The position numbers were made by a program, and so were the translations under genes. This document shows, in pieces, positions 292 through 52,026 of a DNA stretch of 64,000 bases (position 1 is the stretch's first letter; every line of letters begins with the position of its first letter). The notes under the pieces are model-generated. The model was not told the origin of the DNA and searched no databases. It saw nothing but the letters and a program-made list of their open reading frames with translations. Origin of the DNA: Callorhinchus milii (taxonomy: Eukaryota). Where the stretch lies: NCBI RefSeq assembly GCF_018977255.1, contig NW_024704771.1, positions 2,790,001 through 2,854,000 on the forward strand. The letters run 5' to 3'.

Positions 292-355
292 CAGGAAAGC
301 CAATGAGTCCCAACGTAGGATAAAACACCTTTTCTATTTCTATTATTCCTCCCAT
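292..355 (-). CDS. Exon 1 of a GPR139-like GPCR whose exon 2 lies left of the window (MGGIIEIEKVFYPTLGLIGFP)
   Basis: Reverse complement gives ATG at 355, 21 codons plus G, then donor GTACGT. Same 64-nt length and phase as the four other exon 1 copies; downstream intron sequence is also homologous. Confidence 0.8.
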
Positions 356-434
356 TCTGAAGCAGTACTCGCTGGTCACCTTCCTGTTGTTGAAGGCTGA
401 AAAGCACCTCCTGTACATTCAGAGCGTCCCCCTG

Positions 435-440
435 TTTATA
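435..440 (-). promoter_or_regulatory. Candidate TATA box (TATAAA) of the leftmost GPCR gene
   Basis: TATAAA ~80 nt upstream of the ATG at 355, at the position where paralogs have TACAAAA. Confidence 0.5.
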
Positions 441-1029
441 GCTGGGATGCAGCTCCACTGGGACAGTGATTGCAGAAGCAGCAAATCACTTACTCATCTG
501 AACAAACATCTGATGCAGAAAATTTCACACAAGTCTCCATTCAATGCATTATTAATGAACAGCAGCAATATCTGTGGCAAGGAAGATGCTGGGCTCTACT
601 CCAAGATGCGCTATATACATGTAATTTTGTTGCTGTTGTTGATATTTTTAAAATCAGGTTAGTTTCACACCGCACTACCCTCTGCCGTGTTCCTTGGAGT
701 TTTGTAAACAGTTTTGCTCAATGCCCAGGTTATCGAAGTGCAAACCAGGAGGGGTCCTGCTCTTGATCCCACTGGTATGTGTGTATCTGTGAAACTATGG
801 TGAGGAGAGGTCAAGCACAGATGATTTCAAGGGCCATCAGCACCCATTAGATCCCATTGCAGAAGGAAAGGCAAACCAATGGAAAGAACATCAGACCATT
901 AATTCGGGCAATTTTTCGCCCTTCTGAACAACACATGAAAAGAGTGGCAGATGCGGCTCTGCATGTCCACTGCCACACAGCACTGGGAAATGGTTGACAG
1001 AATATTTTGTTTATTACTGTGTGTTCTAG

Positions 1030-1254
1030 AAAGTGAAGGCCACAGTCAGCCAACCATTAACGATAACAAGGCAAAGCTCTACATGCGGGCAGCGTATGGG
1101 TGATCGCCAAAGGTGGAAGTAAAGTGTCTCCAACAGGATCAGGTCAAAGACCATGCAGCAGATCAGCAACAGCCATTGCAATCAGCTAGCCGGTGTCACA
1201 TTTGCAGAGTCCAAACATTCCCTGAGCGAGGACTACAGTGGTCACTGTGATCGC
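1030..1254 (-). pseudogene. GPCR pseudogene 1, 5' half of exon 2 (inverted)
   Basis: Reverse complement: acceptor tgcag, then ITVTTVVLAQGMFGLCKCDTG*LIAMAVADLL...WLTVAFTF* with stops and frameshifts. Confidence 0.8.
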
Positions 1255-1877
1255 TGCAGTAAAGTCACAAACACAATCATACATTTCACTGGGCCTGGTA
1301 CTGTGAACAGCATTGACTCATGCTTGATCACGCCTCACAGTGAACTAGTAGAAATGATTCCATCTTTTGTGGTGGTGTCGTTTGTCAGGACACTGCTCAT
1401 AACGGACCAACCAATATATCTTAATGACAGGATTTGGATAGACAGACTGGTCATTCTCAGCAGAGATTCTATTCTATCACATGCATTCCTGTTAATGAAG
1501 CCCAAACTAGTTGGGTGGGACGTGTGACAGAGAAAGATCTCAATGGCAACTGGTTATACTTCAGCAATTATCATTCTCCACCAGCCCTCAACCCAATGGA
1601 GAGTCTTGAATCCTTAAACATTGCCTCGTGCTGAAATATGCCTCATAATCTACAAATAAATGGCGAAGCAGTCGACTGTTTCAAGGGAGAGTGTGTGCAC
1701 CCAAATCCAGATGCAAATAAACTTCATTGTGTAGGTGACAAATCTATCGGTTTAGATACTCCTAAGCACCTTATAGTTATTCCCAGAGAAAGATGACTGA
1801 CAGATCACAAACAGGCTCACTTTCATGAGAGGGAATGCGAACAACTTTACAAATCTTCACCCTTGAAGCACATCCTT

Positions 1878-2263
1878 CTGCTGCCATAACCTCAAAACCA
1901 AGTGCTACACCGAGAGGACAGTGGGGGTGGTAATCTGGACAATCTGTTTAGTTGTATATGTGGAGAACATCCCTATGTATTTCATCTATCAACTAGGATT
2001 GGTAGTCAATGGGCAGCCCTGGTAATGCTCCGTCAAGCCCACTCTTTACACCTATCTCACCTGGAGGGCCTTTGCCTGCGTCAGTGTCATTGTAAACCCA
2101 ACACTTCCCTTTACCCTCATCCTCCTCTTGAACACCCTGACCATCAGGTAATTGCTGGTTGACAGCAGGAAGCGCCAGAGTCTGCGGGAGGCAGCGAAGG
2201 GGAGGGACGAGGAGATGGAGAGCTGGTGGAAATCCGTAAACCTGCTCTTTACCATATCGGGCA
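1878..2263 (+). pseudogene. GPCR pseudogene 1, 3' part of exon 2 (CC..LKTKCYTERT to LLFTISG), truncated within TM6
   Basis: Clear homology to 17155-17539; ORF 2152-2367 contains SLREAAKGRDEEMESWWKSVNLLFTISG; 3'UTR-like homology follows from ~2350. Confidence 0.85.
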
Positions 2264-3299
2264 CTGAGCTACAGGACTGCACAGTTGGCACAAAGATTTA
2301 TGAGGAAACGAGTTTCCTGATGTTTGTGAGCAGATGTTGTTCAGCCAATCATCATGTTGTGAGATGAATGTACTGTCTTCTAGAATTCTCTTCAATTGGA
2401 GTTTTTGGAATTTTGATGTGAAGTTCATCGCTATGACTCCTATTCCATATTTGTAAAATTTGTGTTCTGTTTATTCTGTTACCTCTGTCTGTCTTTATGA
2501 ATTCCTCTAACCTGTCAGTAAACATTTGGATTTCGTGGGGAAAGCTGATGTGTGGAAGAGACTGTGAATGAAGCCAGAGATTATACACACATTGTGTGAG
2601 CGAATACAGAGACTTCACATAACAATCTTTGCATTTCATATAATAATCCTTGCATTTGGTGTGTCGACTTATCATGGCAGAAGGACAACAACAACTTGCA
2701 TTGATATAGCGCCGATCGCACGGGTTGCGGTCTTGGAACCCTTAACAATGGTGGTCGAAGACGAAGGTCTTCATGCACGATCTGTTAAAAGGAAAGGAGA
2801 GGGCAAGTTGGAGGGATCGAGTGAGAGATTTACAAAGTTTATAGGTGCCGTGGCTGAAAGCATGGCTTCCAATACTGGAGCAGATGCAACATGGAACCAG
2901 CAGGAAGCCAGAACCAGCTGAATTGAGGCAATGGGTAGTTGGGGGGGTGGTGAGAAAATCGGAAAAGTAGCGGCGAGGTGCCAGGGTTTGAAAGGATTAT
3001 GTGCAGGTTACCTATCGATTTGACATATTCTAGGGAAAGTCCGGGGCGTTTGAAAAGAGTCAGAGCTGCAGGAGAGAAGACGTTGACAGCAGCAAAGAGA
3101 TATGGCTTCTGTCTCGTCGATGTTCAGCTGCCAGAAATTTACATTTATCCAGACCTTGATGTTTGCCAAACAAGCTGAAAGAACAACAATAAAAAAAGCT
3201 TGCCTTTATATAGCGCCCTTCACATGGGGTAGCATCCTGGAGCTCTTGACAGTGATGGAGAATGACCCATGAGCTGGGGGGAGTGTGGGGGTGGGGGAA

Positions 3300-3890
3300 A
3301 TAACCGTAAGCATGATCAAAAATCAAGGTCTTTTGGCGGGATTTGAAAGTGGGGAGGGAGAGGTTAAGGCGGAGGGATTGAGAGGGAGAGTTCCAGAGCT
3401 GCGAGGTATAGTCGCTGAAAATATGCTCGCAGATGGTGGAGCCGAGCGGGCGAGGGACAAAAGGAAGTCGGAGCAGGCCAAGTGGAGGCAGCGGGTGGTG
3501 GAGTGGGGAGTAAGGAGGTCAGATACGTGGGGAGGTATGAGGTCTTGAAGGGATTTGTAAAAGAGTGACAATATTGAAGTTGATCAATTCTGTAATTGGG
3601 ACCCATTGGAGCCTAACAAAGACTCCTGGGATACCCCCACAAGTGACTAAGCGGAGGAGAGAGGAGAAATCATTTAGCAAGATGAACTGTTGGTGATTTT
3701 TTAAGTGGAATTCAACCATTCGAGTGCAGTCCCACGATAGTAGAAGGGAGAGGAGAAGGGGTGGAGGAGGATGGCATGATCGGTGGTGGAATGGTCCAGG
3801 ATAACGAGGAGCCTTGGACAGGGTGAAAACCGGACTACAGTGGTTTGAGCAGGGAGTGGAGGCAGTGCTGTAAAATAAATATGGGGCAAG
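3300..3890 (-). mobile_element. Degraded L2-like LINE fragments
   Basis: Translations such as LLVILDHSTTDHAILLHPFSS and LFYKSLQDLIPPHVSDLLTP match the L2 reverse-transcriptase and 3' end seen at 42840-44420 and 63040-64000. Confidence 0.5.
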
Positions 3891-4019
3891 TTCCGTGTCC
3901 TATCACACCCATGTAATACTCTTTAGAAGGTCTGAGCCAGGCTGATCCACAGTCCTACAAAGCAATGCAGGCAACTTCTAATTGCACTGGACGGTCAATT
4001 CTTCTATCTTCACAGCTCA

Positions 4020-4232
4020 ATACTTCATCCCCTGATGTGTGGTTTGTGACTCCCACCTATAAAAGGGGGCAAGTCTGAAGGGAGATGGGATTTTCTGCCT
4101 ACAGCAACAGTCCTTTCTCCAGTGAGAATATTGGGTTATTTACAAGGATCTCTCACTCCTTCAAAGCTGAGTCTCACTGCACCACAGCTCCGGCCGTGCA
4201 CCTGTGGCTTTGATCAAGGAGAGCAACCAACT
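4020..4232 (+). promoter_or_regulatory. Decayed promoter/exon-1 module (TATAAAA at 4058; coding part and splice donor deleted)
   Basis: Homologous to 11610-11890 both upstream of the ATG and in the proximal intron, but lacks the 64-nt coding exon; ATG appears as ATA. Confidence 0.55.
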
Positions 4233-4842
4233 TAGTGTGGGAAAGTATGTTGGAGGTGGTGTGCTGGATTTTGTGGATTTTGTGCATAGTGAAGCTGGGG
4301 AGACCAGTGAGGAGGGCATTTGTGTAATCAAAGTGGGAGATGGTGCGAATGCGTAGATAAGGGATTCGGTTCCATTGCCAATAAGGTACGGTCAGAGAAG
4401 CTCAATGTGGCGGAGGAGGAAAGAGGTCCTGGTACCACAGAGTGAATGAGGATGGCCATTACCTGTAATCTTGGTCCCAAGATGTTATGCAAAAAGATAC
4501 TATGTGAAACAAAAGAATTATTATTATTGAACATTGGATGATCTGAGAGTAGATGAGGAACTACTGGATGAGTTTGAGCTGTATAATTTATAAAAAGTTT
4601 TAGAGAGGATCTGATATAAAAAAAATTCTACCAGGTAAACGCATGCTAAATAAACTATCTGTGATTAAGAAACTAAACGAAGAACAATTTTTTCACGGTG
4701 TGCCAAGACGCAACTTCACAGTTATGAAGGGTAAAATCATGAAACAATTATTATTACTGAGAAGACGTGATACATACTAAATCATTAAAATATGCTATTA
4801 TATCGTGTCAAATATGCAATTGGGGTTGAGAAAGTAATAATA

Positions 4843-5090: not shown

Positions 5091-5119
5091 TGGAAGTAAC
5101 AGCCTGCTGCAGGGGTAAC

Positions 5120-5890: not shown

Positions 5891-6659
5891 ATGTTGGTCA
5901 AATTTAGGACAAAACTATTTCAATACACAGAGATGGAATCTGGGACTGAAAGGCTTACCACGATGTAAGGCAGAAGCTGAGATTTTGTAACATTTTTAAG
6001 AAGCAGCTGGATGCTGTGAAATTAGGGACAAATGGTTTCGATTGAAATGAAATGAACCGATTCAAGAATGAAGGTCTGAAATTCTATTCAAATTCCCTCA
6101 GATGAAAGTGATTCAGGCTCGCTATCTGTTAGGCACCTCTCTCTGGGGAAAACTAATAGGTGCTTAAGAGTATCTAAACCCATAGAAGTCTACACATGTT
6201 TACCATGGACACAATTAAATTTATTTGTGTCTGGAATGGGGTTCACAGTCTCTCCATTGAAACAGTCGACTGCTTACCAATTTCTTTGTAGAGTATGAGA
6301 AAATTTCGGCATGAGATAATATTTAACGATCCAAGACTTTGCATTGGGTTGAGGTGGGGTGGAGAGTGGAGATTGGTAATTACTGGAGCATAACCAGTTG
6401 CCATTGAGATCGTTCACACTTCCCACCCGACGAGTTTGTGCTTCATTAACAGGAACGCAGGAGATAGAATCACTGCTCAGAATTAATAGTCTGTCTCTCC
6501 AATTCCTACATACCAGTTGGTCTGTTCTCAGCAATGCCGTGACAAATGAGACCTCCACAAAGGATGGAATAATTTCCACTAGCCCATCAAGCATGAGCCA
6601 GTGCTGCTCACAGTGCGAGAGCCAGTGAAATGTATAATTATGTTTGTAACTTTTCTGCA

Positions 6660-7352
6660 CGATTGATTTGACCATTATGGTCCTCACCTAGGGAATGTGT
6701 GGGCTCTCCAAATGTGTCACATAACTCATCGCAACGGTTGTTGCCGATCTGCTGACCCAACCCAACTGTCCAGCGCCTTGGGACGTCATCCTGACGTGAA
6801 AGGCGCTCTATAAATGAAATCTTGTTGTTGTTGCTAATCATGGTCTTTGAAGTGATCTTGTATGAGACACCTTACTTCTACCTTCCGCACTCACTCACAT
6901 ACCGAACACCTGTGTGCCACCTGCACGTGGTGCTTTTCTTTGTTATCATCGAATCCTCTGACTGGATGACGTACGGCCTTCAGCTTCAACTGATTCACTG
7001 CAATTTGCTGCCCAAAGTTCAAAATAAAATACTGCAACGAGAGGAGAGCGGGTGTGGTGATCTGGACAATCTGTGCAGTTTTATGCATGGAGAACATCTG
7101 CCAATCATGGTTGGTAATCAATGGGCAGCCCTGGTACTGCTCCATCAAGCCCTATGTTTAAACCTCTCCAGCCTGGAGGGTCTTTGCCTGATTGGATGTA
7201 ATTGCAAACCCACTGTTTCCCTTCATCCTCATCCTCCTCATCAACATCCTGACTATCAGACATGTGCTGATGGTCCGCAGGGTGGGCCAAGGTCAGCGAG
7301 GGCTGTGAAATCGAGGGGTGAGGAGATGGTGAACTGGTGGAAACCCATAATC
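6660..7352 (+). pseudogene. GPCR pseudogene 2 (exon 2 with stops, frameshifts, retro-insertion, TM6-7 deleted)
   Basis: Homology to 16889-17519; acceptor lost (tgcac instead of tgcag), TAG in VLT*GMCG, ~80-nt insertion after ADLL, and a jump to 3'UTR homology after WWKPII. Confidence 0.85.
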
Positions 7353-11310: not shown

Positions 11311-11715
11311 TCCACAAGAACGATGAGGCGCAGGAACACTTTCATGATTATTTTGAATGCTTTTTATACTGATTTCCAACTCCATATTCTGGGTCTTAAA
11401 CGAACGCTTTGCAATACTCCAAGCAACAAACTATGACTGCGCAATTTGTGACTAACAGCTGTGCACCTGAACGCAACACATCTGGAGATGGTGTTCATCA
11501 TCTTGCTTGCTCTGTTTATTGCTGCTGTTTTTTTATTAAAAAATGCATTAGCTGGGGAGTGTCATGAATGTAGTTCCCTCCAGATGTTCTTGCTTCTTTA
11601 ATCAGTGTCCCAGTGGACATGATTTGCAGCTACAAAAAGAGGGAAGCTCTGAAGGGATGAGAAGTCATTTTCAACCTTCAGCATTAGGGAGGTTGCCAGC
11701 CAGCACTGCTTGAGA

Positions 11716-11779
11716 ATGGTGGGAGTGATAGAAATAACAAAGGTGTTTTATCCTCTGTTGGGACTCGTTGGTTTTCCTG
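11716..11779 (+). CDS. GPR139/GPR142-like GPCR gene 1, exon 1 (MVGVIEITKVFYPLLGLVGFP)
   Basis: ATG in context AGAATGG; 64 nt; donor CTG|GTAAGT, phase 1; joins in frame to 16889. Confidence 0.85.
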
Positions 11780-16888: not shown

Positions 16889-17778
16889 CGATCGCTGTGA
16901 CCATTGTGGTCCTCACCCAGGAAATGTGTGGACTTTCCAAATGTGTCACTCGTTACCTGGTGGCAATGGCTGTTGCTGATCTGCTGGTCATGGTTTTTGA
17001 CGTGATCTTTTATGAGACATTTCATATCTACCTTCCGCACTCACCCACACACCGAACACCTGTGTGCCGTCTACACCTGGCACTTTGCTTCGTTATCATC
17101 GAATCCTCTGTCTGGCTGACCGTGGCCTTCACCTTCGACCGTTTCACAGCCATCTGCTGCCCAAAGCTCAAAACCAAGTACTGCACAGAGAAGACAGCGG
17201 GTTTGGTGATCTGGACAATCTGTGCAGTTTTATGTGTGCAAAACATTCCCACGTGTTTCATCTACCAACCACGGTTAGTAATCAATGGGCAGCCCTGGTA
17301 CTGCTCCGTCAAGCCCATTGTTTACACCTCTCCAGCCTGGACTGTCTTTGCCTGGTTGGATGTTATTGCAAACCCAATTCTTCCCTTCATCCTTATCCTC
17401 CTCTTCAATACCCTGACCATCAGATATGTGCTGGTTGCCAGCAGGGTGCGTCAGGGTCTGCGACGGGCTGTGAAGGGGAGAGATGAGGAGATGGAGAGCC
17501 GGCGGAAATCCATCATCCTGCTCTTTACCATCTCGGGCAGCTTCGTGTTGCTGGGGCTCACGTACATGGTCACCTTCATGTATACGATGGTAACAGAGGC
17601 CGAGCACCTGCAGTCTGACTACAGCAGCCCTTTCACCATCGCTGAGCATGTGGGTTACATGCTGCAGCGTCTAAGCTCCTGCTCCAACACCTTCATCTAT
17701 GGTGTGACCCAGAACCAATTCAGGCAACGGCTCAAATCCATCGTCACTTACCCCATCACTCGCTTACTGGGCCACTGA
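16889..17778 (+). CDS. GPR139/GPR142-like GPCR gene 1, exon 2 (spliced protein 317 aa)
   Basis: Acceptor ttatgcag|CG; 7TM motifs CGLSKCVTRYLVAMAVADLL, PVC, AFTFDRFTAICC, WYC, RRKSIILLFTISG, NTFIY; TGA at 17776-17778. Confidence 0.92.
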
Positions 17779-21957: not shown

Positions 21958-22021
21958 ATGGTGGGAGTGATAGAAATGACAAAGGTGTTTTATCCTCTGT
22001 TGGGAATCATTGGTTTTCCTG
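21958..22021 (+). CDS. GPR139/GPR142-like GPCR gene 2, exon 1 (MVGVIEMTKVFYPLLGIIGFP)
   Basis: ATG at 21958, 64 nt, donor CTG|GTAAGT; in frame with 26511. Confidence 0.85.
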
Positions 22022-26510: not shown

Positions 26511-27415
26511 GGATCGCGTTGACCATTGTGGTCCTGGCTCAGGGAATGTGTGGACTCTCCAAATGTGTCACTCGTTATCTGGTCGCAATGGCTGTTGCTG
26601 ATTTGTTGGTCATGGTCTTTGATGTCATCCTATATGACGCAATTAATTTACACCTTCCGCACTCACCCACACGCCAAACACCTGTGTGCCGTCTACACCT
26701 GGTGGTTTGCTTTGTTATCGTCGAATCCTCTGCCTGGCTGACCGTGGCCTTCACCTTCGACCGCTTCACAGCCATCTGCTGCCCAAAGCTCAAAATCAAG
26801 TACTGCACTGAGAAGACAGCGGGTTTGGTGATCTGGACAATCTGTGCAGTTTTATGTGTGGAGAACATCCCTTTGTACTTCATCTACCAACCACAGTTGA
26901 TAATCAATTGGCAGCCCTGGTACTGCTCTGTCAAGCCCAATGTTTACACCTCTCCAGCCTGGAGAGCCTTTGCCTGGTCGGATGTTATTGCCAATCCACT
27001 TCTTCCCTTCATCCCCATCTTCCTCTTCAACACCCTGACCATCAGACACGTGCTGTTGGCCAGCAGGGTGCGTCAGGGTCTGCGAGTGGCTGTAAAGGGG
27101 AGGGATGAGGAGATGGAGAGCCGGCGGAAATCCATCATCCTGCTCTTTACCATCTCGGGCAGCTTCGTGTTGCTGTGGCTCACCTACATGGTCACTTTCA
27201 TGTATGCGATGGTAACAGAGGCCGAGCACCTGCAGTCTGACTACAGCAGCCCTTTCACCATCGCTGAGCATGTGGGTTACATGTTGAAGCATCTGAGCTC
27301 CTGCTCCAACACCTTCATCTACGGTGTGACCCAGAACCAATTCAGGCAACGGCTCAAATCCATCATCACTTACCCCATCATTCGCTTACTGGGACACTCA
27401 CAAAACCCCACTTAG
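26511..27415 (+). CDS. GPR139/GPR142-like GPCR gene 2, exon 2 (spliced protein 322 aa)
   Basis: Acceptor tttcttgcag|GG; uninterrupted 7TM frame with FDRF and NTFIY; TAG at 27413-27415. Confidence 0.92.
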
Positions 27416-29182: not shown

Positions 29183-29386
29183 ATCTGCTGCCCAAAGCTC
29201 AAAACTAATTACTGCACCGAGAGGACAGCGGGTTTGGTGATCTGGACAATCTGTGCAATTTTATGTATAAAGAACATCCCTTTGTATTTCATTTACCCAC
29301 AATCAATGTTACTGCTCCGTCAAGCCCAATTTTTACACCTCTTCCAACTGGAGGGTCTTCGCCTGGTCGGATTTTATTGCAAACTC
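29183..29386 (+). pseudogene. GPCR pseudogene 3, internal exon-2 fragment fused to CR1
   Basis: ICCPKLKTNYCTERTAGLVIWTICAILCIKNIPLYFIY, then frameshift and deletion to 3'UTR homology. Confidence 0.85.
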
Positions 29387-29610: not shown

Positions 29611-29640
29611 NNNNNNNNNNNNNNNNNNNNNNNNNNNNNN
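29611..29640. other. Assembly gap (30 N)
   Basis: Run of N. Confidence 1.
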
Positions 29641-31583: not shown

Positions 31584-32130
31584 CTAAGTGGGGTTTTGTG
31601 AGTGTCCCAGTAAGCGAGTGATGGGGTAAGTGACGATGGATTTGAGCTGTTGCCTGAATTGGTTCTGGGTCACACCGTAGATGAAGGTGTTGGAGCAGGA
31701 GCTCAGACGCTGCAGCATGTAACCCACATGCTCAGCGATGGTGAAAGGGCTGCTGTAGTCAGACTGCAGTTGCTCAGCCTCTGTTACCACTGTATGAATG
31801 AAAGGGACCATGTAGGTGAGCAACAGCAACACAAAGCTGCCCGAGATGGTAAAGAGAAGATAATGGATTTACTCCGACTCTCCATCTCCTTGACCTTCCC
31901 CATCACAGCCCCTCGCAGACTGTGCCGCACCCTGCTGGCCACCAGTATGTGTCTGATGGTCAGAGTGTTGAAGAGGAGGATGATGATGAAGGGAAATAGT
32001 AGGTTTGCAATAACTTCGACCAGTCGAAGACCCTCCACGCTGGAGAGGTGTAAAAATTGGGCTTCACGGAGCAGTACCAGGGCTGCCCATTGATTACCAA
32101 TCGTGGTTATTAAATGAAATACAAAGGGAT
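31584..32130 (-). pseudogene. GPCR pseudogene 4, 3' half of exon 2 with frameshifts
   Basis: VIANLLFPFIIILLFNTLTIRHILVASRVRHSLRG...SRSKSII, frameshift, then LLLLTYMVPF...NTFIYGVTQNQFRQ; preceded directly by L2 sequence. Confidence 0.85.
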
Positions 32131-33040
32131 GGAGGGATTTGAAGACAAGGGTGAGGATCTTGAAATCGATCCAACTCTGGAATAGGCAGCCAGTGCAGTC
32201 TGGCGAGGACTGGGGTAATCGGGGTGTGGAATTGTGTGTGGGTGAGATTTCCGGCAGCAGAGTTTTAAATAATTTGGATTTTTTGGATGGAAGTGTGGGG
32301 GAGGCCGGCGAGCAGGGCATTTGCATAGTCCAGCCAGGAGGTGACAAAGTCATGGAACAAGGGCTTTCGGAGATAGGTATTGGCAGAAATGGGCGATGCA
32401 TCGGTGGCGGAAGAAGGTGGTGCTGGAGAGGAACTAGATGTGGGGGAAGAAGGATAATTGGGTCGAACCTGACGTCTCGGTTGCGTATGGGTTGAAAGAG
32501 TATTAGGGAGAGGTTGGGAAGGTGGAGGAGGTGAGAACTGTGGGATTTGGGACGTTGATGGGGTATGGCTTCCATCTTGTCAATGTTTAGCTGAAGGAAA
32601 TTTGCGCTCATCCAGCCCCTGAGATCTGACCGGTAGGCTGACAGAACATCAGGGAACTGGGGGTCGCAACGAGGATAGAAAAATAGAGTTGGGTGCCGTC
32701 CGCATACATGTGGAAAAATATCCCATGTCTGCGGATGATATCCCCAAGAGGGAGCATGTAGATCCGAAAGAGGATGGGGCCAAGGATGGATTCTTGGTGT
32801 TCCCCACAGGTAGCGGGAAGAGAAGCCATTTATGCAGATGTACTGCTGGCGGCTTGTGAGGTAGGACTTGAACCATGTGAGAGTGGTCCCACTGAATTGG
32901 ATGATGGAAGAAAGATGGTGGAGGAGGATGGTGTGATCAACTGTTGAACGCGGTGGAGAGTTCCAGGAGGACAAGGAGGCAGAGGGAGCCCTGGTCACAA
33001 ATAGAGAGGACTTTTGCAAGGCAGAGCAGGTTTGTAATGG
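32131..33040 (-). mobile_element. L2-clade LINE RT fragment (shortened copy of 42840-44420)
   Basis: [38 protein letters not shown]; WMSANFLQLNIDKMEAI; IDFKILTLVFKSLH. Confidence 0.85.
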
Positions 33041-33424
33041 AATGGAAGTAAATAATAAAAAGGTATTAGAAAATGACTTGAAAAGAAAAAAATTGCAGGT
33101 CTATGGATTAAGAGTGGGGTAGTGGCACTCTGGCATCATTCACACACATACGCACATCAGTGTATTCAAGGAAACCCAAACTATTTACTTACAGCTCAGA
33201 GGAATTGAATTAAGACAGACAGAGGTAACAGAATATACAGATACAAATATTATAAACTACAGTATAGGAGCCATAGACATGACATTCACAATTGATATTC
33301 AAAATGCTGATTGAAGAGAATTCTTGAAGACTGAACATCCATTGCACAACACGCGGGGGCTTGTGTGAGGGTGTGAGTGTGTGTGTCTTTATCTGTGCTG
33401 ATAAGCCAGAACAGGGCAGCGCAG

Positions 33425-34329
33425 CTAAGTGGGGTTTTGTGAGTGTCCCAGTAAGCGAGTGATGGGGTAAGTGACGATGGATTTGAGCTGTTGCCTGAAT
33501 TGGTTCTGGGTCACACTGTAGATGAAGGTGTTGGAGCAGGAGTTCAGACGCTGCAGCATGTAACCCACATGCTCAGCGATGGTGAAAGGGCTGCTGTAGT
33601 CAGACTGCAGGTACTCGGCCTCTGTTACCATCGCATACATGAAGGTGACCATGTAGGTGAGCAACAGCAACACAAAGCTGCCCGAGATGGTAAAGAGCAG
33701 GATGATGGATTTCCGCCGGCTCTCCATCTCCTCATCGCGCCCCTTTGCAGCCCCTCGCAGACCCTGACGGACCTTGCAGGCCAACAGCACATGCCTGATG
33801 GTCAGGGTGTTGAAAGGGAGGATGAGGATGAAGGGAAGAATTGGGTTTGCAATTACATCCAACCAGGCAAAGACAGTCCAGGCTGGAGAGGTGTAAAAAT
33901 TGGGCTTGACGGAGCAGTACCAGGGCTGTCCATTGATTACAAACCGTGGTTGGTAGATGAAATATATGGGGATGTTCTCCACACATAAAACTGCACAGAT
34001 TGTCCAGATCACCAAACCCGCTGTCCTCTCGTTGCAGTGCTTGATTTTGAGCTGTGGGCAGCAGATGGCTGTGAAACGGTCGAAGGTGAAGGCCACGGTC
34101 AGCCAGACAGAGGATTCGATGATAACAAAGCAAAGCACCAGGTGTACACGGCACACAGGTGTTTGCTGTGTGGGTGAGTGTAGAAGGTGTCCATTAATTG
34201 TTTCGTACAGGATGACATCAAAGAACATAACCAGCAAATCAGCAACAGCCATTGCGACCAGATAGCGAGTGACGCATTTGGAGAGTCCACACTTTCCCTG
34301 AGCCAGGACCACAATGGTCAACGCGATCC
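33425..34329 (-). CDS. GPR139/GPR142-like GPCR gene 3, exon 2 (spliced protein 322 aa)
   Basis: Acceptor tttcctgcag|GG at 34330; intact 7TM frame; TAG at 33425-33427. Confidence 0.92.
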
Positions 34330-38566: not shown

Positions 38567-38630
38567 CAGGAAAACCAATGAGTCCCAACAGAGGATAAAA
38601 CACCTTTGTTATTTCTGTCAATCCCACCAT
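38567..38630 (-). CDS. GPR139/GPR142-like GPCR gene 3, exon 1 (MVGLTEITKVFYPLLGLIGFP)
   Basis: ATG at 38630, 64 nt, donor GTAAGT at 38566-38561. Confidence 0.85.
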
Positions 38631-40710: not shown

Positions 40711-42839
40711 ATTGTGCTGAGAAGAACCAGGAAATGACCCTCCAGGGCAGTGAGTGTGTGGAAGAACAAAGAGACAGTTTCTGTTGGCAAATCATGACGG
40801 AATTAGTTATTGAATTGGCTAACATTTAATTTGGGTATGAGGGGTCACATTCGTGTGCTCTCGTTGAATTTGAACTACATCTGACGTGATATGCTTGACA
40901 ATGGAATATCAAATTCTAAATAATATTCTGTTGTTTCACCTAAAAACCGCACATGTATCCCAGACCATTTATAAGACTCTTTTGGTTCCAGTCTTACTTA
41001 ACAATCACCAATAAAACATTTTGGCAAATATTTTTTCATACCGCCCCCACCAGTTCACTTATGGTGTAACCCGAGTCTTTATCCTTTTCCAACTTTTCCT
41101 GAACGACATGCTCTGCCTTGCTGATGTTATCCACAGACATGAGGTCAACTTTCACATGTATGTGCATGACGCCCATATCTAATTGTTCTCCTCGATCTGC
41201 GACACCAAGTGCACTGAACTTCTGTCAGCCTTTTTTCTGTCATCCTTTTTGATGGACATCAAGGTGTGGATGAGTGGAAATTTCCTGAATCTGAATGTTG
41301 GCAAGGCAGAAGCCGTATTCTGTCAACATCTTGTCTCCTGTGGAAACAGAGAGATCTGGGGGTTCACATACTCATATCTTGAAATTGATAGGATAAGTTT
41401 ACAAAGTTGTTAAAGAAACTTTTGAAATCATTGGCTTTATAAATAGAGGCAGAGTGTATAAAAGCAAGGACGTTATGTTGCCTCTTTACAAATTGCTGGT
41501 TAGGTCTTATAGGGAGTATTGTGTCCAATTCTGCGCATCACACTTCCGGAAGAATGTCTCAAATTTGCTGGGGCAGATTCTGCTGGCGGGCGGGTCTGTC
41601 ATCAGAAGACACAGTTTCTGGCTATTTACTCTATCAAAACCCTTTATAATTTTGAACACCTCTATTGAAAATTCCCTTAACTTTCTCTGCTCCGAGGAGA
41701 ACAATCTCAGACTCTCCAGTACTCTACTCAATTGAATTCCTTCATCCCTGGTATCATTCTGGTAAATCTCTGCACTCTCACCAAGACTGTGGCATCATTC
41801 CTAAATTTGCAAACTAACCAGAAGGGAGATAAGGAGAACATTTTTTACCCAGAGAGTTATTATGATGTGGAATATATAGCTTGAACGGTTGGTGGAAGCA
41901 GATTGTACAGTAAATAATAAAAAGGTATTAGAAAATGACTTGAAAAGAAAAAAATTGCAGGTCTATGGATTAAGAGTGGGGTAGTGGCACTCTGGCATCA
42001 TTCACACACATACGCACATCAGCGTATTCAAGGAAACCCAAACTATTTACTTACAGCTCAGAGGAATTGAATTAAGACAGACAGAGGTAACAGAATATAC
42101 AGATACAAATATTATAAACTACAGTATAGGAGCCATAGACATGACATTCACAATTGATATTCAAAATGCTGATTGAAGAGAATTCTTGAAGACTGAACAT
42201 CCATTGCACAACACGCGGGGGCTTGTGTGAGGGTGTGAGTGTGTGTGTCTTTATCTGTGCTGATAAGACAGAACAGGGCAGCGCAGCTAAGTGGGGTTTT
42301 GTGAGTGTCCCAGTAAGCGAGTGATGGGGTAAGTGACGATGGATTTGAGCTGTTGGCTGAATTGGTTCTGGGTCACACCGTAGATGAAGGTGTTGGAGCA
42401 GGAGCTCAGACGCTGCAGCATGTAACCCACATGCTCAGCGATGGTGAAAGGGCTGCTGTAGTCAGACTGCAGTTGCTCAGCCTCTGTTACCACTGTATGA
42501 ATGAAAGGGACCATGTAGGTGAGCAACAGCAACACAAAGCTGCCCGAGATGGTAAAGAGAACATAATGGATTTCCTCCGACACTCCATCTGCTCGACCCT
42601 CCCCATCACAGCCCCTCGCAGACTGTGCCGCACCCTGCTGGCCACCAGCACGTGTCTGATGGTCATAGTGTTGAAGAGGAGGATGAGTATGAAGGGAAAT
42701 AGTAGGTTTGCAATAACATCGACCAGTCGAAGACTTTGCTGGCTGGAGAGGTGTAAAAATTGGGCTTCACGGAGCAGTAACAGCGCTGCCCATTGATTAC
42801 CAACCGTGGTTATTAGATGAAATACAAAGGGATGGAGGG

Positions 42840-44420
42840 ATTTGAGGTCAAGGGTGAGGATCGTGAAATCGATCATCTCTGGAATAGGCAGCCAGTGCAG
42901 TCTGGTGAGGACAGGAGTAATCGGGGAACAAAATTTTGTGAGGGTGAGATTTCGGGCAGCAGAGTTTTAAACAATTTGGATTTTTTGGATGGAAGCGTGG
43001 GGTAGGCGGGCGAGGTGATCATTTGCATAGTCCAGCCAGGAGGTGACAAAGGCATGGAACAAGGTTTAAGGGACTTTCGGAGAGAGGTATTGGCAGAGAT
43101 GGGCGATGCATCGGCGTTGGAAGAAGGTGGTGCTGGAGAGGAACTGGATGTGGGGGAAGAAGGATAATTGGGTCGAACCTGACGTCTAGGTTGAAAAATT
43201 TTTAGGCAGATGTCGGGAAGTTGGAGGAGGTGAGAACTGTGTGATTTGGGACGTTGATGGGGTATGGCTTCCATCTTGTCAATGTTTAGCTGAAGAAAAT
43301 TTGCGCTCATCCAGCCCATGAGATCTGACAGGCAGCTGACAGAACATCAGGGAACTGGGGGTCGCAAAGAGGATGGAAAAATAGAGTTGGGTGCCGTCCG
43401 CATACATGTGGAAAAATATCCCATGTCTGCGGATGATATCCCCAAGAGGGAGCATGTAGATCCGAAAGAGGATGGGGCCAAGGATGGATCCTTGGTGTTC
43501 CCCACAGGTAGCGGGAAGAGAAGCCATTTGTGCAGATGTACTGCTGGCGGCTTGTGAGGTAGGACTTGAACCATGTGAGAGTGGTCCCACTGAATTGGAT
43601 GATGGAAGAAAGATGGTGGAGGTGGATGGCGTGATCAACTGTTGAACGCGGTGGAGAGGTCCAGGAGGACAAGGAGGCAGAGGAAGCCCAGATCACAAAC
43701 AGAGAGGATGTCATTTATGACTTTCACAAGTGCAGTCTCTGTAACGTGGGCAGGGCGGATACCGGTCTGGAGGGTTTCGAAGAGGGAGGAGTGATGTGCG
43801 CGAAATTGATGGGCAACAACGCTTTCTAGGACTAATGCAAGGAAGAGCAGGTTTGTAATGGGGAGGTAGGGACCTATGGAAGGTGTTTTGAGTAGGGGGA
43901 TGATGACAGGAGTTTTGAGGGAGGCAGGGACTGATCCGGAGGAGAGCGACTGGTTGATGATATCAGCCAGTAATGGGCAGAGGAGGGGGAGCTGGGTGAC
44001 CAGCAAATTGGTGGGGAAGGGCTCGAGGCAGCAGGTGGTGGGTTTCATGTGCGGAGGAAGGAATATAGGATGGCGGTGGTGGTAGGAGGCGATGATGGGG
44101 AGGCTGAGGGGGACAGAGAGGGTGTGGTGGTATGTGACAAAAGGAAGGTGGATGAGACTGCCTGGCGGATGTTGTAAATTTTAGATGAAAAGAAGTCCAT
44201 GACGTCTTCGCGCTTGGCATTTGATAAAGAGATTGAGGAGGCCTGAGGGGAGCAGGGAGGAGGCAGTGTGTGGTGGAAAAAAGGAATTTTGGTTTTTGTT
44301 TAGCCTCCAAGATGATGTTGGAGTAGAAGGCAGTTTTTGCGCGTGTCAAAGAACGGCGATAGATGTGGAGATGCTTGTGATACTCGACCACGAGTACATG
44401 TCTGAGAGTCAGGGTGCTGA
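42840..44420 (-). mobile_element. L2-clade LINE, 1.6-kb degenerate ORF2/RT
   Basis: AKTAFYSNII...PKFLFST; LADIINQSLSSGSVPASLKTPVIIPLLK; TETALVKVINDIL; LLVLLDLSTAF; QGSILGPILFRIYMLPLG; YADGTQLY. Confidence 0.9.
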
Positions 44421-44442
44421 AGAGGAGGATGAGGATGAGGTG

Positions 44443-44503
44443 GAGTCCTGTAGCTCAGTGGTTAGAGCACTCGCTTTGCAAGTGAGAGACCTGCGTTCAA
44501 TTC
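44443..44503 (+). mobile_element. Isolated tRNA-like SINE head
   Basis: gagtcctgtagctcagtggttagagcactcgctttgcaagtgagagacctgcgttcaattcc, A and B boxes, no tail. Confidence 0.7.
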
Positions 44504-45219
44504 CAGATCACCAAACCCGCTGATCTCTCGGTGCAGTACTTAGTTTTGAGCTTTGGGCAGCAGATCGCCTCTAATTCTGTATTCTAGAGAACATAGGCCG
44601 AGTCTAATCAACAAAAGTAATAAAGATTGTTCTCATGATCAGGATGGTTGCTCTCCTTGAACACAGCGCCAGATGCACTGCCAGAGCTGTCGATCAGTGA
44701 GACACAGTTTTGAAGGAATGAGAGATCTCCACATTATTACTGAACAAATGACTGTTGCTGAAGCCAAAAAGCTATCCCATCTCCTTCAAGACTGGTCCTC
44801 TTTTCAGAGTAAGGTCTTGTCACAAACTGCACATCAGGGAATGAAGAATCGTGCTGAGAAGAACCAGGAAATGACCCTCCAGGGCAGTGAGTGTGTGGAA
44901 GGAACAAAGAGACAGTTTCTGTTTGCAAATCACCACGGAATTAGTTATTGAATTGGCAAACATTTAATTTATGTATGAGGGGTCACATTCGTGTGCTCTC
45001 GTTGAATTTGAACTACATCTGACGTGATTTGCTTGACAATGGAATATCAAATTCTAAATAATATTCTGTTGTTTAACCTAAAAACCGCACATGTATCCCA
45101 GACCATTTATTAGACATTTTTTGGTTCCAGTCTTACTTAACAATCACCAATAAAACATTTTGGCAAATATTTTTTCATACCGCCCCCACCACTTCACTCC
45201 TTGTCCAAATTTTCCTAAA

Positions 45220-46100
45220 CTGCATGCTCTGCCTCGTTGATGGTATCCAAAGACATGGGGTCAACTTTCACATGTATGAGCATGACCCCCATATCTAATT
45301 CTTCTCCTTGATCTGCGACACCCAGTGCACTGAACTTCTGTCAGCCTTTTTTCTGTCAGCCTTTTTGATGGATATCAAGTTGTGGATGAGTGAAACATTC
45401 CTGAATCTGAATGTTGGCAAGGCAGAAGCCATATTCTTTGGCTCCAGTCAACATCTTGTCTCCTGTGGAAGCAGAGAGATCTGGGGCTTCACTTACTCAC
45501 ATCTTTGAAAGTGATAGGATAAGTTTACAAAGTTGTTGAAGAAATCATTGGCTTTATAAATAGAGGCATCGTGTATAAAAGCAAGGACGTTATGTTGCCT
45601 CTTTACAAATTGCTGGTTAGGCCTTATACGGAGCATTGTGTCCAATTCTGGGCACCACACTTCAGGAAGAATGTCTCAAACTTGCTGGGACTGATTCTGC
45701 TGGCGGGTGGGTCTGTCATCAGAGGACACAATTTCTCCCTATTTACTCTGTCAAAACCCTTTATAATTTTGAACACCTCTATTGAATATTCCCATAACTT
45801 TCTCTGCTCTGAGGAGAACAATCTCAGACTCTCCAGTATCTCTACTCAATTGAATTCCTTCATCCCTGGTATCATTCTGGTAAATCTCTGCACTCTTTCC
45901 AAGACTCTGGCATCATTCCTAAATTTGCAAACTAACCAGAAGGAAGATAAGGAAAATATTTTTTACCCAGAGGGTTATTATGATATGGAATATATAGCTT
46001 GAAACGTTGGTTGAAACAGATTGGACAGCAAATATCAAAGAGCTATTGGAAAACGGTAAATGACTTGAAAAGAAAAAAATTGAAGGTCTATGGATTAAGA
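45220..46100 (+). mobile_element. L2 plus CR1 composite (internal inversion) downstream of gene 4; copies at ~30400-31280, ~41100-41980, ~54480-55370
   Basis: ORF 45571-46002 YKSKDVMLPLYKLLVRPYTEHCVQFWAPHFRK; opposite strand FSSEQRKLWEYSIEVFKIIKGFDRV. Confidence 0.75.
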
Positions 46101-46740: not shown

Positions 46741-47645
46741 CTAATTGGGGTTTTGTTTGTGTCCCAGTAAGCGAGTTATGGAGTAAGTGACGATGGATTT
46801 GAGCCGTTGCCTGAATTGGTTCTGGGTCACACCATAGATGAAGGTGTTGGAGCAGGAGCTCAGACGCTGCAGCATGTAACCCACATGCTCAGCGATGGTG
46901 AAAGGGCTGCTGTTGTCAGACTGCAGGAGCTCGGCCTCTGTCACCATCGCATATATGAAGGTGACCATGCAGGTGAGCAACAGCAACACGAAGCTGCCCG
47001 AGATGGTAAAGAGCAGGATGATGGATTTCCGCCGGCTCTCCATCTCCTCATCGCGCCCCTTTGCAGCCCGTCGCAGACCCTGACGCACCCTGCTGGCCAA
47101 CAGGACGTGTCTGATGGTCAGGGTGTTGAAAGGGAGGATGAGGATGAAGGGAAGAATTGGGTTTGCGAATACATCAAACCAGGCAAAGACAGTCCAGACT
47201 GGAGAGGTGTAAAAATTCGGTTTGACGGAGCAGTACCAGGGCTGTCCATTGATTACAAACTGTGGTTGGTAGATGAAATATATGGGGATGTTCTCCAAAC
47301 ATAAAACCGCACAGATTGTCCCGATCACCAAACCCGCTGTCCTCTCAGTGCAGTACTTGATTTTGAGCTTTGGGCAGCAAATGGCTGTGAAGCGGTCGAA
47401 GGTGAAGGCCACGGTCAGCCAGACAGAGGATTCGATGCTAACAAAGCAAAGCACCAGGTGTAGACGGCACACAGGTGTTTGGTGTGTGGGTGAGTGTGGA
47501 AGGTGTAAGTTAATTGTTTCATACAGGATGACATCAAAGACCATGACCAACAAATCAGCAACAGCCATTGCGACCAGATAGCGAGTGATGCATTTGGAGA
47601 GTCCACACTTTCCCTGAGCCAGGACCACAATGGTCAACACGATCC
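46741..47645 (-). CDS. GPR139/GPR142-like GPCR gene 4, exon 2 (spliced protein 322 aa)
   Basis: Acceptor ttttctgcag|GG at 47646; intact 7TM frame; TAG at 46741-46743. Confidence 0.92.
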
Positions 47646-50600
47646 CTGCAGAAAATGCACAGAAACAATCATACATTCCTCTGGGTTTGGGACTGTTTAC
47701 AGAACTGGCTGATGCCTGATCGAGTCTGTTCGTGGACAAGTGGAATAAATTCCAACTTCTGTTGTGGTCCCATTTGTCAGGGCACTGCTGATAACAGAAC
47801 AACCAGTATATCTCGTCCACACGACTTGGTGAGACAGACTGATCATTGAGATCAGAGATTCTAACTCACTCATTCCTATCAACTAAAGGCCAAACTATTG
47901 GTGTGGTAAGTGTGGCAGAGGAAGAACTCAATGGCAAACTGTTACACTTCAGCTATTACCACTCTCCACCCCACCTCAAACCAAACTTGCATCAAGAAAC
48001 ATTGTCTCATGCCGAAATTTGCCTCATATTATACACAGAAATGGGTACGGAGTCGACTGTTTCACGTGTCCTTCCCATAACAGAACCTGATCGTTTTTTT
48101 CCAGAAAGAGATGCCTGACAAATCACAAAATAGACTCACTTTCCTACGAGGGAATGCGAACAGCTTTTTAGACATTCATCCTTGAATCAGATCCTCGTGC
48201 TTCGAGAATCTAAACCCTCTGACTCTCCCATCGCAGCCCCAAGCAGTTTCTTACACATGTTACAATATCTCGGCTTCCACTTTCCTTCTTAATAACCCTC
48301 GCGATCCCAGATTCCACATCTGTGAAATGAAATCAATCTATCCTAAATTTGACCATCATAATCATAACGATAATCCTTGCATTTTTGATTTAGATTTAGA
48401 TTTAGATTTTTTGAAAGTAATTATTACCCGAGAACAGCGATGCGCCAATCAATTTACAACCAGATTCCTATTCCAACCTCGATTCCTAACCTGCATCTTT
48501 GTGTAATTTGAAAGTAATAGTAGTAGAAATAATAATAATAAATTCTTCACATAATATACTGTAAAATGGTTTGAGTGTGTCCAAGTTTGGTGCACAGCAA
48601 TGTCCCACAAAGAGTCATGGATTGAGTGAGCAATTTTATTTGGTGGATTTGTAGACCAAGACACCTGATCATACAGACGGGACCTTAGTTTCAGCTCTCA
48701 TCTGATGGATAAAACCTCCAACAATCTCACTCCCAGCACTGCCTGGAATGGATTTTCATCCCCCACTATGTTTTTCCGAATGCGACTTTGGGCTGAAACC
48801 TATAACACTCTGAATCAAAGGTAAGAGTGTTACCACAGCAGCCGACTGACATAGATTGTTACTGGTTTACTTTCTCAACGGCAGAAAGCATATTTGACAA
48901 AATATACAAACATATTTTAATTATTTAGTCTACATATGGTCTCAGAAATATTTCTGTCATAAATTTGCCATTCTTAGCTGGAAATTTGCATTATTAAATG
49001 AAAGAGCTTCAACTCATCCAATCAATCTTGGCAGCTGATCCTATAACCGTGTTCTCCTCCACACTGCACCTAATTAATTACTAAAAGTATCCTTGTTAGA
49101 AAGCATCGAGGGGAGCCTTGACATTATTAACGTGCACCTGATCATCCCAATGGATAATTTAGTTAAACAGCTGGTTAAACTACTTGATTTCTTTTTGACC
49201 GCTCAACTAATCAGGGTTCATGCTCCAGACATCCGGGGACCGAGATTACCAGACATTTGTTAGGAGCTGTGGAGCTGTCAGGCTAAGTCGTCCATTGCAA
49301 CAATCGCAGTGACTCTCCAGGAAAGCCGTTGAGTGCCATCACAGGAAGCCAACTCCCTTCTCCTCATCTGTCACCAGCTGCCTCCCAGCTTAGGCTCCTG
49401 CACTCAGGCTTTGGGATGTGCTAATGACAAATGCTGAACAAGTCAAAATTGTTATTGTGGATTTCGAATTGTCTCATTAAAACTCAGGTTCCCCAGCGAA
49501 GATCCTAATGGCTCTTTGCTGCCACTTTATAGAGATGTCTTTTCTCTAACCAGGGACGTGAATGTGAAGTATTTTACATGTGTATTAATTGACTGCTGCT
49601 CTCCTGGTTAGACTCTCAGCCACAATCTCGTGCATACTTGCATTGGCCCAGCGAAGCGCAGTGCACCTCGAATCTCTGTACAAAAACACTTCTCCCCATT
49701 CTCAGACAGCAATGTCTGGGTCCGTCCTGTTGCTCTAGGCTGACAGACACCTCACAGCCCATCAGAGATGAGAGAGTGAGATTGCATAAACATTAAATCA
49801 TATTCACTAACTTGCACAAGCACCTGGTGGCAGCCACATTCACACCATCTTCGAATCTTTCAAGATATAAAATTAAACTCTTTAGATAGGAGATTATTTG
49901 GAAAATAACTTGTTCATGTCCCAAATATAAATATTTGCTGTTTAATTCACACACTAATTTACTCTTACGTTTGCCAACTCAGTCGGCCTCTATCGCTTGC
50001 ATATTCATTTTCCGTTCAACATAAAGCGTGTTAAGGTTTCAGTTTATCTGTTGCCTTCAGCATCATAAATAAAAAATATAATATTCTAAGGGTAACTGTA
50101 ATCACGGCTGAAGATTTCTAGATAGTGGCATCTATCGCATCAGGCGCCTAATTGCTCGATATAATGGCTGCATTGCAAGCCTTCCAACTTGTTTTGCCTT
50201 CTCACTGGAACTGTCTTCCACAAACCTTTGTCTTATCTCTTCCCTATTTGCTTTAAAATTCCATCTTGTACTTCAAAATCCAACCGCGAACCCTGCAACC
50301 TCACAAACTACAGTTCCATTTCAACGCCTCCCACTGACAAAGCTCTGGAAGGCGTTGTTGCTGGCCAGCTTTGCTCACACTCTCCCGCCACTTCCACCCA
50401 CCAGTCGTCCACTCTGGCACAGAGACTATGCTTTTCAAAGCAGACACTTTTTATCTTTGATTGAGCAGCCCTATGTCTGCCTCCTCGCCGTCATGGACCT
50501 CTCTGTCCCGATCGACATAGTTCATGATGCCATCCAGTATCTCGTTAGTTAGAGAACATTCCTCGCAAGCGAGAGGACATGTGTTTGATTCTCGAGTTGG

Positions 50601-51962
50601 GTGAAACATTGGCAAGTTTCCTTACTCCACATATCTGTTTACCAATCTTAAAAAATGAACCCGGTTGTCGATCGATTGGCAGACCACTTTTCTGGGGTTA
50701 ATAATCCCGTCAATAAATACATAAACTTATTTGGTAACTCAAACCATGACGGGTTGTGGGACACTGCTGTGCCTGCTTCCCCATAAAACATACACACACT
50801 TCACTTCACAGTATCTTATGTGGAGCACTTTGAGACGTCTCAATGAAATGACACGGCGTTGTAATCAATGCAAGGATTATTCCTTATCCTCCTCCAGCTT
50901 CTGCGCCCTTATTAACTTTAGTGGGACCAGGACCTCTTTCCTCCACATCCACCACATTGCCCTCCTCTGACTGTACCTCATCCGCAATGCAGCCGAAAGC
51001 CTCTTTCACATGTTCGTCAAATTAAATATTGATTAAACAAATGCCCTGCTCGTCGGGCTCTGCAGCTTTACGATCCCAAACATCCAGTTATTGCAGAATA
51101 CCACAACACACACTGAGACCTACACTAATCACCATTTTCCACCCATAACAGTTAATGCCAGGCTCCAATGTCTCCCTATCACTTTCAAGATCCTCACAAC
51201 CTTCTACTATTTTCTTTATGTCCTGCATCTCCATACATTTCTGACTTCCATACTCCTCAATCCAACACCCATTTCCACTGCTCGACTGGCACTGGTCTCC
51301 TGATTGTAGCTCGGGCCCTTCATTCCACCTTCCATGGTTGTCCTTTCAACCCCGAAATACACAGGTCTTTCTCTTCGACTATTCATTCGGTTACCTCGTG
51401 CCTCCACGGAAAATATCCCCAAAAGACACCGGCAGAATGCACCAGCACAGTCAAGTGCTATGGAAACCTACCCTGCATGAGCTGTGCTGTATAAATGAAA
51501 GCTTTTTTTTATTCAACTGTTTGATTATGCTTTTTTGCTTCCCTTCCCTGAATTGGTTCCATCATATCTCTAACCATCCTGAATAGTTTGGGATGTTTTC
51601 TAACTCTAACGGTACTAAACAACTAAATTGTTATTTCAGTTTTTGTAGCCTTTCCTTGCAATATGGGATCCCTATATTTAGCTATCAATCTAACTTCAAA
51701 TTTCCTATACCCTTCCTTATTTGAGATGTCCTTCCTGTTTCTAAGAGAACAGAATTTGTAGTGTGATTGATTAAATGATTGTACCTGGAGCTGTTCGGGT
51801 TAGACTGTCTCCAATTCTCTCTGAGGTCCCTCATAGCGCATCCTCTAACACTGGGGATCAGGCTGGTTGCTCTCCTCCAGTAAAGAGATATCACTGTCAG
51901 GTGCACAGACACAGCTGTGAGACTTGGCTTTGCCCGAGTGAGAGTTACTTGCAATGACTTAC

Positions 51963-52026
51963 CAGGAAAACCAATGAGTCCCAACAGAGGATAAAACACC
52001 TTTGTTATTTCTATCAATCCCACCAT
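51963..52026 (-). CDS. GPR139/GPR142-like GPCR gene 4, exon 1 (MVGLIEITKVFYPLLGLIGFP)
   Basis: ATG at 52026, 64 nt, donor GTAAGT at 51962-51957. Confidence 0.85.

Follow-up and report, generated by a model that had tools for sequence, protein, structure and literature searches.

We analyzed a 64-kb stretch of the Callorhinchus milii genome (contig NW_024704771.1, positions 2,790,001 to 2,854,000 of the forward strand; hereafter the window, position 1 being its first letter) that contains four intact two-exon genes for class A G-protein-coupled receptors (GPCRs), two on the plus strand (A and B) and two on the minus strand (C and D). Each gene comprises an exon 1 of 64 nucleotides (nt), a phase-1 GT-AG intron of 4.2–5.1 kb, and an exon 2 of 890 nt (A) or 905 nt (B–D). 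Receptor residues are given in generic numbering. The exons of these genes, and the first exon of a fifth gene (E0), lie as follows.

292..355, minus strand: E0 exon 1, with intact ATG and GT donor and TATAAA in its promoter; its exon 2 is expected left of the window
11716..11779, plus strand: gene A exon 1, 21 codons plus 1 nt, with GT donor and TACAAA about 85 nt upstream
16889..17778, plus strand: gene A exon 2 (gene A, 317 amino acids; Gly at 6.48)
21958..22021, plus strand: gene B exon 1
26511..27415, plus strand: gene B exon 2 (gene B, 322 amino acids; Trp at 6.48)
33425..34329, minus strand: gene C exon 2 (gene C, 322 amino acids; Leu at 6.48)
38567..38630, minus strand: gene C exon 1
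46741..47645, minus strand: gene D exon 2 (gene D, 322 amino acids; Leu at 6.48 and Cys at 6.51)
51963..52026, minus strand: gene D exon 1

The translations of A, B, C, and D are free of stops over 317, 322, 322, and 322 residues, and pairwise they share 86–91% protein identity at synonymous divergences (dS) of 0.09–0.22. With the E0 exon, they bear out the four intact paralogs and one further exon 1 proposed in a first-pass annotation of the window, whose quoted peptides all occur as written in the translations. A promoter block is conserved in all five promoters, with TACAAA about 85 nt 5' of the ATG in A–D (11631–11636 in A) and TATAAA in E0. The splicing of exon 1 to exon 2 is predicted from sequence. 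Three runs guessed to be RNA (contigs, without tissue labels) are evidence neither way: depth was 0 on exon 1 and 0–4 on exon 2, and the exon 1–exon 2 joint occurred 0 times among the 15 of 619 joints listed. Run X1, in which long pieces span promoter and intron, behaves as DNA. The exon 2 product of gene A matches C. milii XP_007908432.1 ("type-2 angiotensin II receptor-like") at 100% over exon 2. That RefSeq model starts with a different first exon. We rejected it in favour of the 64-nt exon, which is found ahead of all four genes and can be aligned to shark relatives at their N-termini.

The array had been described as GPR139-like, and GPR139 is the nearest solved relative of the family to which these genes belong, no unrelated GPCR family having claimed them: a search with the family profile gives human GPR139 at E 4e-19, with no other protein below 1e-12. 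GPR139 is also top-ranked for the amphibian sister gene and the coelacanth relative discussed below (2.6e-13 and 1.8e-18) and ranks third for gene A alone. Like GPR139 (Protein Data Bank entries 7VUG and 9M42), the window receptors have a class A fold, a short N-terminus, and a similar start of the first transmembrane helix (TM1), together with two coding exons, Asn5.58, Phe3.33, and no Pro7.50; the intron position is presumably the same. GPR139, however, is one conserved gene, whereas the window family is many-copy with pseudogenes and has a Cys3.25–Cys45.50 pair where the aligned GPR139 sequence shows none. That the genes are extra copies of GPR139 or GPR142, sensing L-Trp and L-Phe, might be taken from the database name "probable GPR139", from the best solved match of the profile, and from the retained Phe3.33, but we find it scarcely credible. 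Human GPR139 matches gene A at E 4e-7 and about 21% identity (21% in the structural alignment to 7VUI), against 70% between the zebrafish and human orthologues (PMC7318219). The agonist site of GPR139 consists of E3.32, F3.33, H5.43, W6.48, R6.51, and N7.38 (PMC7318219). At these positions A–D carry C, F, D, G/W/L/L, Y/Y/Y/C, and Y; only Phe3.33, one residue in six, is kept in all four, Glu3.32, His5.43, Arg6.51, and Asn7.38 being replaced in all four and Trp6.48 in three. The GPR139-like label thus stands for kinship and fails for copies: to judge from their sequences, the window genes belong to a separate lineage, a distant cousin of GPR139, and are not duplicates of GPR139 or GPR142.

A protein search yielded 1,971 clusters at E ≤ 0.001, and the best 120 of the 1,971 all come from 11 chondrichthyan species (chimaera, sharks, and rays); elasmobranch matches among these best 120 share 46–56% identity, most of them bearing the automatic name "probable G-protein coupled receptor 139". 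A search run without word index placed 122 representatives below 1e-30, and eight of the nine divergent ones looked up were chondrichthyan. The expansion, which the first-pass annotation had suggested may be lineage-specific, is not local: the family spans chimaeras, sharks, and rays. The main tree holds 31 proteins, with 48 of 79 rows omitted, and true GPR139 and GPR142 are absent both from it and from a quick tree of all 79 rows. In the main tree the window genes group with C. milii P0005 in a clade (100/100) that sits on a long stem (0.48) and is nested among genes of sharks and skates (99/97); the chondrichthyan family as a whole (88/87) is joined by an amphibian/sturgeon gene at 100/100. 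The quick tree agrees both in that junction and in the clade of the window genes with P0005. Because the window clade is nested among elasmobranch genes, several subfamilies predate the chimaera–elasmobranch split, about 420 Myr ago (PMC3964593), and the window array is a later, chimaera-only burst, a young twig of a cartilaginous-fish family.

The amphibian/sturgeon gene (XP_069092602.1 in Pleurodeles, P0399 in Xenopus tropicalis, P0415 in Acipenser) is sister to the whole chondrichthyan family. It was matched once in each of 20 amphibian species and once in a sturgeon (P0223, P0396–P0415), from which we infer a single copy because the matches are 90% clusters, and the same search found no match in other bony vertebrates. 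It shares the basic motif of the third intracellular loop (ICL) and TM6 with the window family but differs in its low identity to gene A (about 30%), in Pro6.50, Lys6.51, and Asn2.50, and in its one match per species. Ser1.50 and Asn2.50 stand in this receptor for the usual Asn and Asp, and its pocket is invariant. The other of the two nearest relative groups among bony vertebrates, led by a coelacanth protein (P0224), is conserved from sharks to reptiles, with 46–66% identity across fishes, amphibians, and reptiles and shark members of its own (P0278, P0281, P0285). It forms a separate clade (99/98), whereas the window genes fall elsewhere (100/100). This group, compared by description and with identifiers unmatched, fits GPR210A/B, non-mammalian orphans beside GPR139 and GPR142 (Rinne et al. 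2019, PMC6504862); that paper does not cover cartilaginous fishes, the parts available containing 0 mentions of "shark" or "cartilag-". Two members of the coelacanth-led group, P0281 from a shark and P0379 from a frog, carry TMEM183A isoform annotations, suggesting either a tight linkage to TMEM183A that has been conserved or read-through between the two genes.

Variation across the family is concentrated in the ligand pocket. Among 103 shark and ray proteins (those kept by length from 113 matches, a set biased to relatives of gene A), column entropy is 1.83 in 33 pocket columns, compared with 1.44 in the other outer parts of the transmembrane helices (p = 0.007) and 0.71 in their inner parts (p = 3e-9). 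In a control of 46 coelacanth-led proteins matched in overall divergence (60% versus 61% identity) the corresponding values are 0.62, 1.05, and 0.77, and pocket entropy in 20 amphibian proteins is 0.09. A signature of seven core residues takes 75 forms in the 103 shark and ray proteins and one form in the 20 amphibians. D3.49-R3.50, N5.58, N7.49, Y7.53, and both disulfide cysteines are kept in 102–103 of the 103. The pocket is thus the most variable part in this family and the least variable part in both control groups, a clear reversal that we read, from sequence comparison, as the signature of a repertoire.

The four window genes were compared with our own simple GY94 codon model. The overall ratio of nonsynonymous to synonymous rates (dN/dS) is 0.47, below 1 at p = 2e-5, and the genes are therefore maintained as proteins. 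It is 0.65 in the outer half of the receptor and 0.31 in the inner half (likelihood-ratio test, p = 0.001), with 44 of 148 outer and 30 of 169 inner positions variable (Fisher p = 0.016), so that selection is neither neutral nor uniform across domains. The outer-half signal stems mainly from the top of TM2 and the first extracellular loop (ECL1; codons 62–79), where dN/dS is 1.86 (p = 0.06 against 1) in a stretch picked afterwards from the first-pass list; an unguided scan for the densest 16-codon window of variable positions gave p = 0.07. On the cytoplasmic side, ICL3–TM6 (codons 217–243) is invariant (0 of 27 positions variable, dN/dS 0.00), but ICL2, which had likewise been described as nearly invariant, is average (dN/dS 0.57, 4 of 12 positions variable). 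The proposed pattern of variation is real in outline and narrower than stated.

By Pfam, the two genes scanned match 7tm_1 only at E ≤ 0.001 (64.5 and 65.5 bits against a cut-off of 30.5), and in these two no profile of the olfactory (OR), trace-amine (TAAR), vomeronasal (V1R, V2R), or taste (T1R, T2R) receptors or of Srw was matched at that threshold. All four genes carry D2.50, C3.25–C45.50, D/E3.49-R3.50, P5.50, N7.49, and Y7.53; they deviate in having Ile at 1.50 (four of four), Trp at 6.48 in B only, and Thr at 6.50 and 7.50. N1.50, W6.48, P6.50, and P7.50 are common in class A and not required, and the family and its relatives deviate at such positions as well. Codon 23 (1.50) encodes Ile in A–D and in the two further C. 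milii relatives inspected, and Asn in 95 of 98 aligned shark and ray proteins; as those C. milii relatives are 71–75% identical, Ile1.50 is old and tolerated. Codon 244 (6.48) encodes Gly, Trp, Leu, and Leu in A, B, C, and D and Trp in 102 of 103 shark and ray proteins, the loss of Trp amounting to two separate single-base changes. Trp6.48 lines the deep agonist pocket of GPR139 (PMC7318219), and its replacement may have tuned pocket depth or activation or may be a sign of decay.

Our tentative interpretation is that the family forms a sensory repertoire, diversified for the detection of small external chemicals, and we rate the chance that this is right a little short of even. The first-pass annotation had proposed a sensor repertoire (chemosensory, nutrient, or immune) whose members diverge in ligand specificity; this holds for the strong pocket diversity of the family as a whole, but not for a lineage-local expansion, nor for the window alone, because A–D have most of the pocket core in common (the four genes agree at 24 of 35 pocket positions). 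Several further points count against a sensory repertoire. Within A–D, dN/dS is 0.72 at pocket positions and 0.44 at others (p = 0.11), and 11 of 35 pocket positions are variable compared with 31 of 155 others (p = 0.18); site model M2a is not significantly better than M1a (p = 0.08) in this comparison of only four genes, and codon tests can be distorted by mosaic exchange between copies. The clustering of differences in extracellular parts, which holds for the outer half and TM2-top/ECL1, does not extend to ECL2, with a dN/dS of 0.48 at the level of the rest, or to ECL3 and the tops of TM6 and TM7, which are extracellular but conserved (0.23). In the entropy test, related sequences count as independent of one another, as do columns. 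That Asn1.50 and mostly Trp6.48 have been lost, and that A–D have TACAAA in place of TATAAA, could mean relaxed function. V2Rs have already been shown in shark olfactory neurons (PMC10116579), and the 50 most specific genes of a catshark olfactory library include no GPCR (PMC11979771), a weak objection because sparsely expressed receptors rarely rank among the most specific genes.

The window also contains six pseudogene relics, in keeping with the first-pass estimate of at least five. Their lesions are frameshifts, stops, truncations, or an inversion.

1029..2263, mixed strands: relic 1, exon 2 codons 22–104 inverted (1029–1252, minus) and codons 101–238 at 1855–2263 (plus), with stops and frameshifts
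6651..7352, plus strand: relic 2, codons 20–231, with five stops, an 82-nt insertion, and frameshifts, lacking the 3' part
29183..29383, plus strand: relic 3, codons 110–182, with two 10-nt deletions
31584..32131, minus strand: relic 4, codons 140–323, with stops at 147/148 and two 1-nt deletions, its 5' part replaced by retroelement-like sequence
42287..42834, minus strand: relic 5, a duplicate of relic 4 with identical lesions
44390..44568, minus strand: relic 6, remnants of codons 109–203 with large deletions, the counterpart of relic 3

Relics 4 and 5 sit in a 3.3-kb block whose copies are 97.6% identical, and a 1.8-kb piece is present three times at 99.1–99.2% identity. With intact genes standing beside relics and duplicated blocks, the proposed birth-and-death array is supported. 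N gaps at 29611–29640 and 55623–55647 flank the minus-strand block, the second of them ending a third copy of the relic 4/5 unit; the orientation of that block and the youngest repeats therefore depend on the assembly. Genes C and D (dS 0.089) seem too divergent for a simple assembly duplicate. They are 93–98% identical from promoter to mid-intron and 94% in exon 2, and at their 3' ends each is nearer to B (97% and 96%) than to the other (93%), so the units are mosaic, with unequal exchange between copies as the likely cause. At 48150–48550, in the intron of gene D, identity to gene C dips and the topology-informative sites switch over a single bin; an exchange breakpoint close to a repeat insertion is the likely reason. 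Decayed retroelement-like reading frames, presumably of LINE type, lie within and between the duplicated units (31787–33100, 42876–44454, 63009–63930, and 45523–45999, the last with about eight relatives); a Pfam scan of two of them gave no match.

Such a region invites the explanation that the array reflects mostly neutral copy-number churn in duplication-prone, retroelement-rich DNA, its genes being a few redundant copies of a single receptor that purifying selection maintains only weakly, some of them heading for loss. The excess of relics over intact genes, the very recent duplicated blocks (97.6–99.2%), the pocket core common to all four genes, the lost class A residues and weakened TATA box, and the lack of significant positive selection are all as this would have it. 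We nevertheless think it doubtful, given the low dN/dS, above all in the inner half, and the contrast between exon 2, where gene A is 90–93% identical to the others, and most intron bins, where it is 73–83%; Ile1.50, moreover, is old and tolerated, and family-wide pocket diversity relative to matched controls is left unexplained.

Five kilobases from gene D lies a TRIM gene, with PRY-SPRY and coiled-coil exons at 57337–58038 and 61415–61783 on the minus strand; a 55-bp tandem repeat of 4.8 copies (58793–59052) lies within it. These exons were considered as part of the receptor repeat unit and rejected, being single copy in the window. The mammalian MRGPRs and formyl-peptide receptors are models for a repertoire of immune and barrier cells, and the chondrichthyan family could likewise serve leukocytes in the detection of peptides that derive from microbes or damage. 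Pocket diversification and turnover would be expected in that case too, and the TRIM gene is close by; relatives of MAS1 and MRGPR, moreover, are absent from cartilaginous fishes according to PMC8455134. Still, the TRIM exons occur once and outside the repeated unit. With a loose C/EBP pattern, drawn from the consensus, no match was found within 500 nt upstream of A–D and two upstream of E0, and the window holds 90 matches against 111 expected, that is, no enrichment. An immune repertoire seems to us unlikely, though well worth keeping in view.

The structure of the receptors and their descent bear on the kind of ligand. AlphaFold modelling of the exon 2 product (from an alignment of 47 sequences; mean pLDDT 75) gives a class A bundle with the end of TM1, TM2–7, and helix 8, and ECL2 as a beta hairpin. 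Its Foldseek neighbours are all class A peptide-type receptors at 14–22% identity, from which the search did not separate GPR139 (rank 18, 21%). The protostome receptors for FMRFamide, myoinhibitory peptide (MIP), and myosuppressin are the sister group of GPR139/142 (PMC8557429). As these receptors are related to GPR139/142 in this way and nematode srw arose among them, the family, which descends from a lineage of aromatic-amino-acid and peptide receptors, probably has amino-acid-like ligands or short peptides as ligands, with the GPR139 site itself rebuilt. Peptide-receptor ancestry, the structural neighbours, and the ECL2 hairpin would equally suit endogenous or conspecific peptides (neuroendocrine, reproductive, or pheromonal) in place of food or environmental cues. 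Receptors for endogenous peptides, however, are usually conserved 1:1 across species (PMC2576165), as are both control groups here, and no expanded peptide family to go with the receptors came to light, none having been sought; we regard this alternative as quite improbable.

The reading as a sensory repertoire has a precedent in nematode srw, a rapidly evolving family with kinship to FMRFamide/myosuppressin receptors and high gene turnover, for which a role in sensing peptides from the environment has been speculated (PMC2576165). Both are birth-and-death expansions out of the FMRFamide/myosuppressin–GPR139 receptor lineage, and atlas neighbours of a family member include clusters with the Srw profile on 17–74% of members; the expansion is nonetheless independent, the two window proteins scanned do not score against the Srw profile, and the ligands of srw are themselves speculative. 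With the OR, TAAR, V1R, V2R, T1R, and T2R families (PMC10869828, PMC10116579) the family shares tandem clusters, birth and death, a variable pocket, and a conserved cytoplasmic face, the last two across the family and in part within the window; it differs in lacking sequence membership in any of them, and the likeness is known here from gene sequences. It is possible, although we lean somewhat against it, that this is a seventh vertebrate chemoreceptor family in sharks, rays, and chimaeras, which would have arisen from the GPR139/peptide-receptor lineage before the chimaera–shark split as the vertebrate counterpart of srw, far larger than the known smell and taste repertoires of these fishes and with an unexpanded sister gene in amphibians.

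Each gene encodes a receptor with a very short N-terminus. In the sensory reading, the helical pocket would hold the ligand, and coupling to one G protein, common to all members, would run through the invariant DRF and ICL3–TM6 surfaces. New copies would come from segmental duplication and from unequal exchange, most of them dying, while across the family the pocket diverges; different subfamilies are predicted to bind different ligands through the shared G-protein interface. The four window genes would probably share a ligand class and differ from one another only slightly, at ECL1 and 6.48, and expression would probably be in sensory epithelia.

We found no description of this chondrichthyan family in the literature searched, which leaves most subscription papers outside its coverage and may hide a buried mention. 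Five sources (PMC8455134, PMC10869828, PMC10116579, PMC11979771, PMC10620051), in their available parts, either report small GPCR or olfactory repertoires or lack any mention of the family under the search terms used, and the searched portions of the supplements to the elephant shark genome, whale shark, and nurse shark spleen papers (one short file for the last) hold no GPR139 entry. The unnamed whale shark 7tm_1 orthogroups OG0000365 and OG0000181 could contain the family. The family is thus apparently undescribed, a birth-and-death GPCR repertoire from a lineage without known vertebrate precedent. New here are the codon tests of the young twig, the divergence-matched pocket control, the nesting of the chimaera clade in elasmobranch subfamilies, the evidence of mosaic exchange, and the disappearance of Asn1.50 and, mostly, of Trp6.48 from the chimaera twig, a natural source of receptors that lack Asn1.50 and differ at the 6.48 switch, where three residues occur.

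Cartilaginous fishes have large olfactory organs (PMC10116579, PMC10869828) and 20–62 known olfactory receptor genes (PMC10869828), and have been described as GPCR-poor (PMC8455134). Whether sensory or immune in role, a large family with varied pockets that automatic annotation has labelled "probable GPR139" would alter this view. The proposal is directly testable in existing catshark and skate tissue data, and the conserved amphibian sister gene offers a route to the ancestral ligand in Xenopus.

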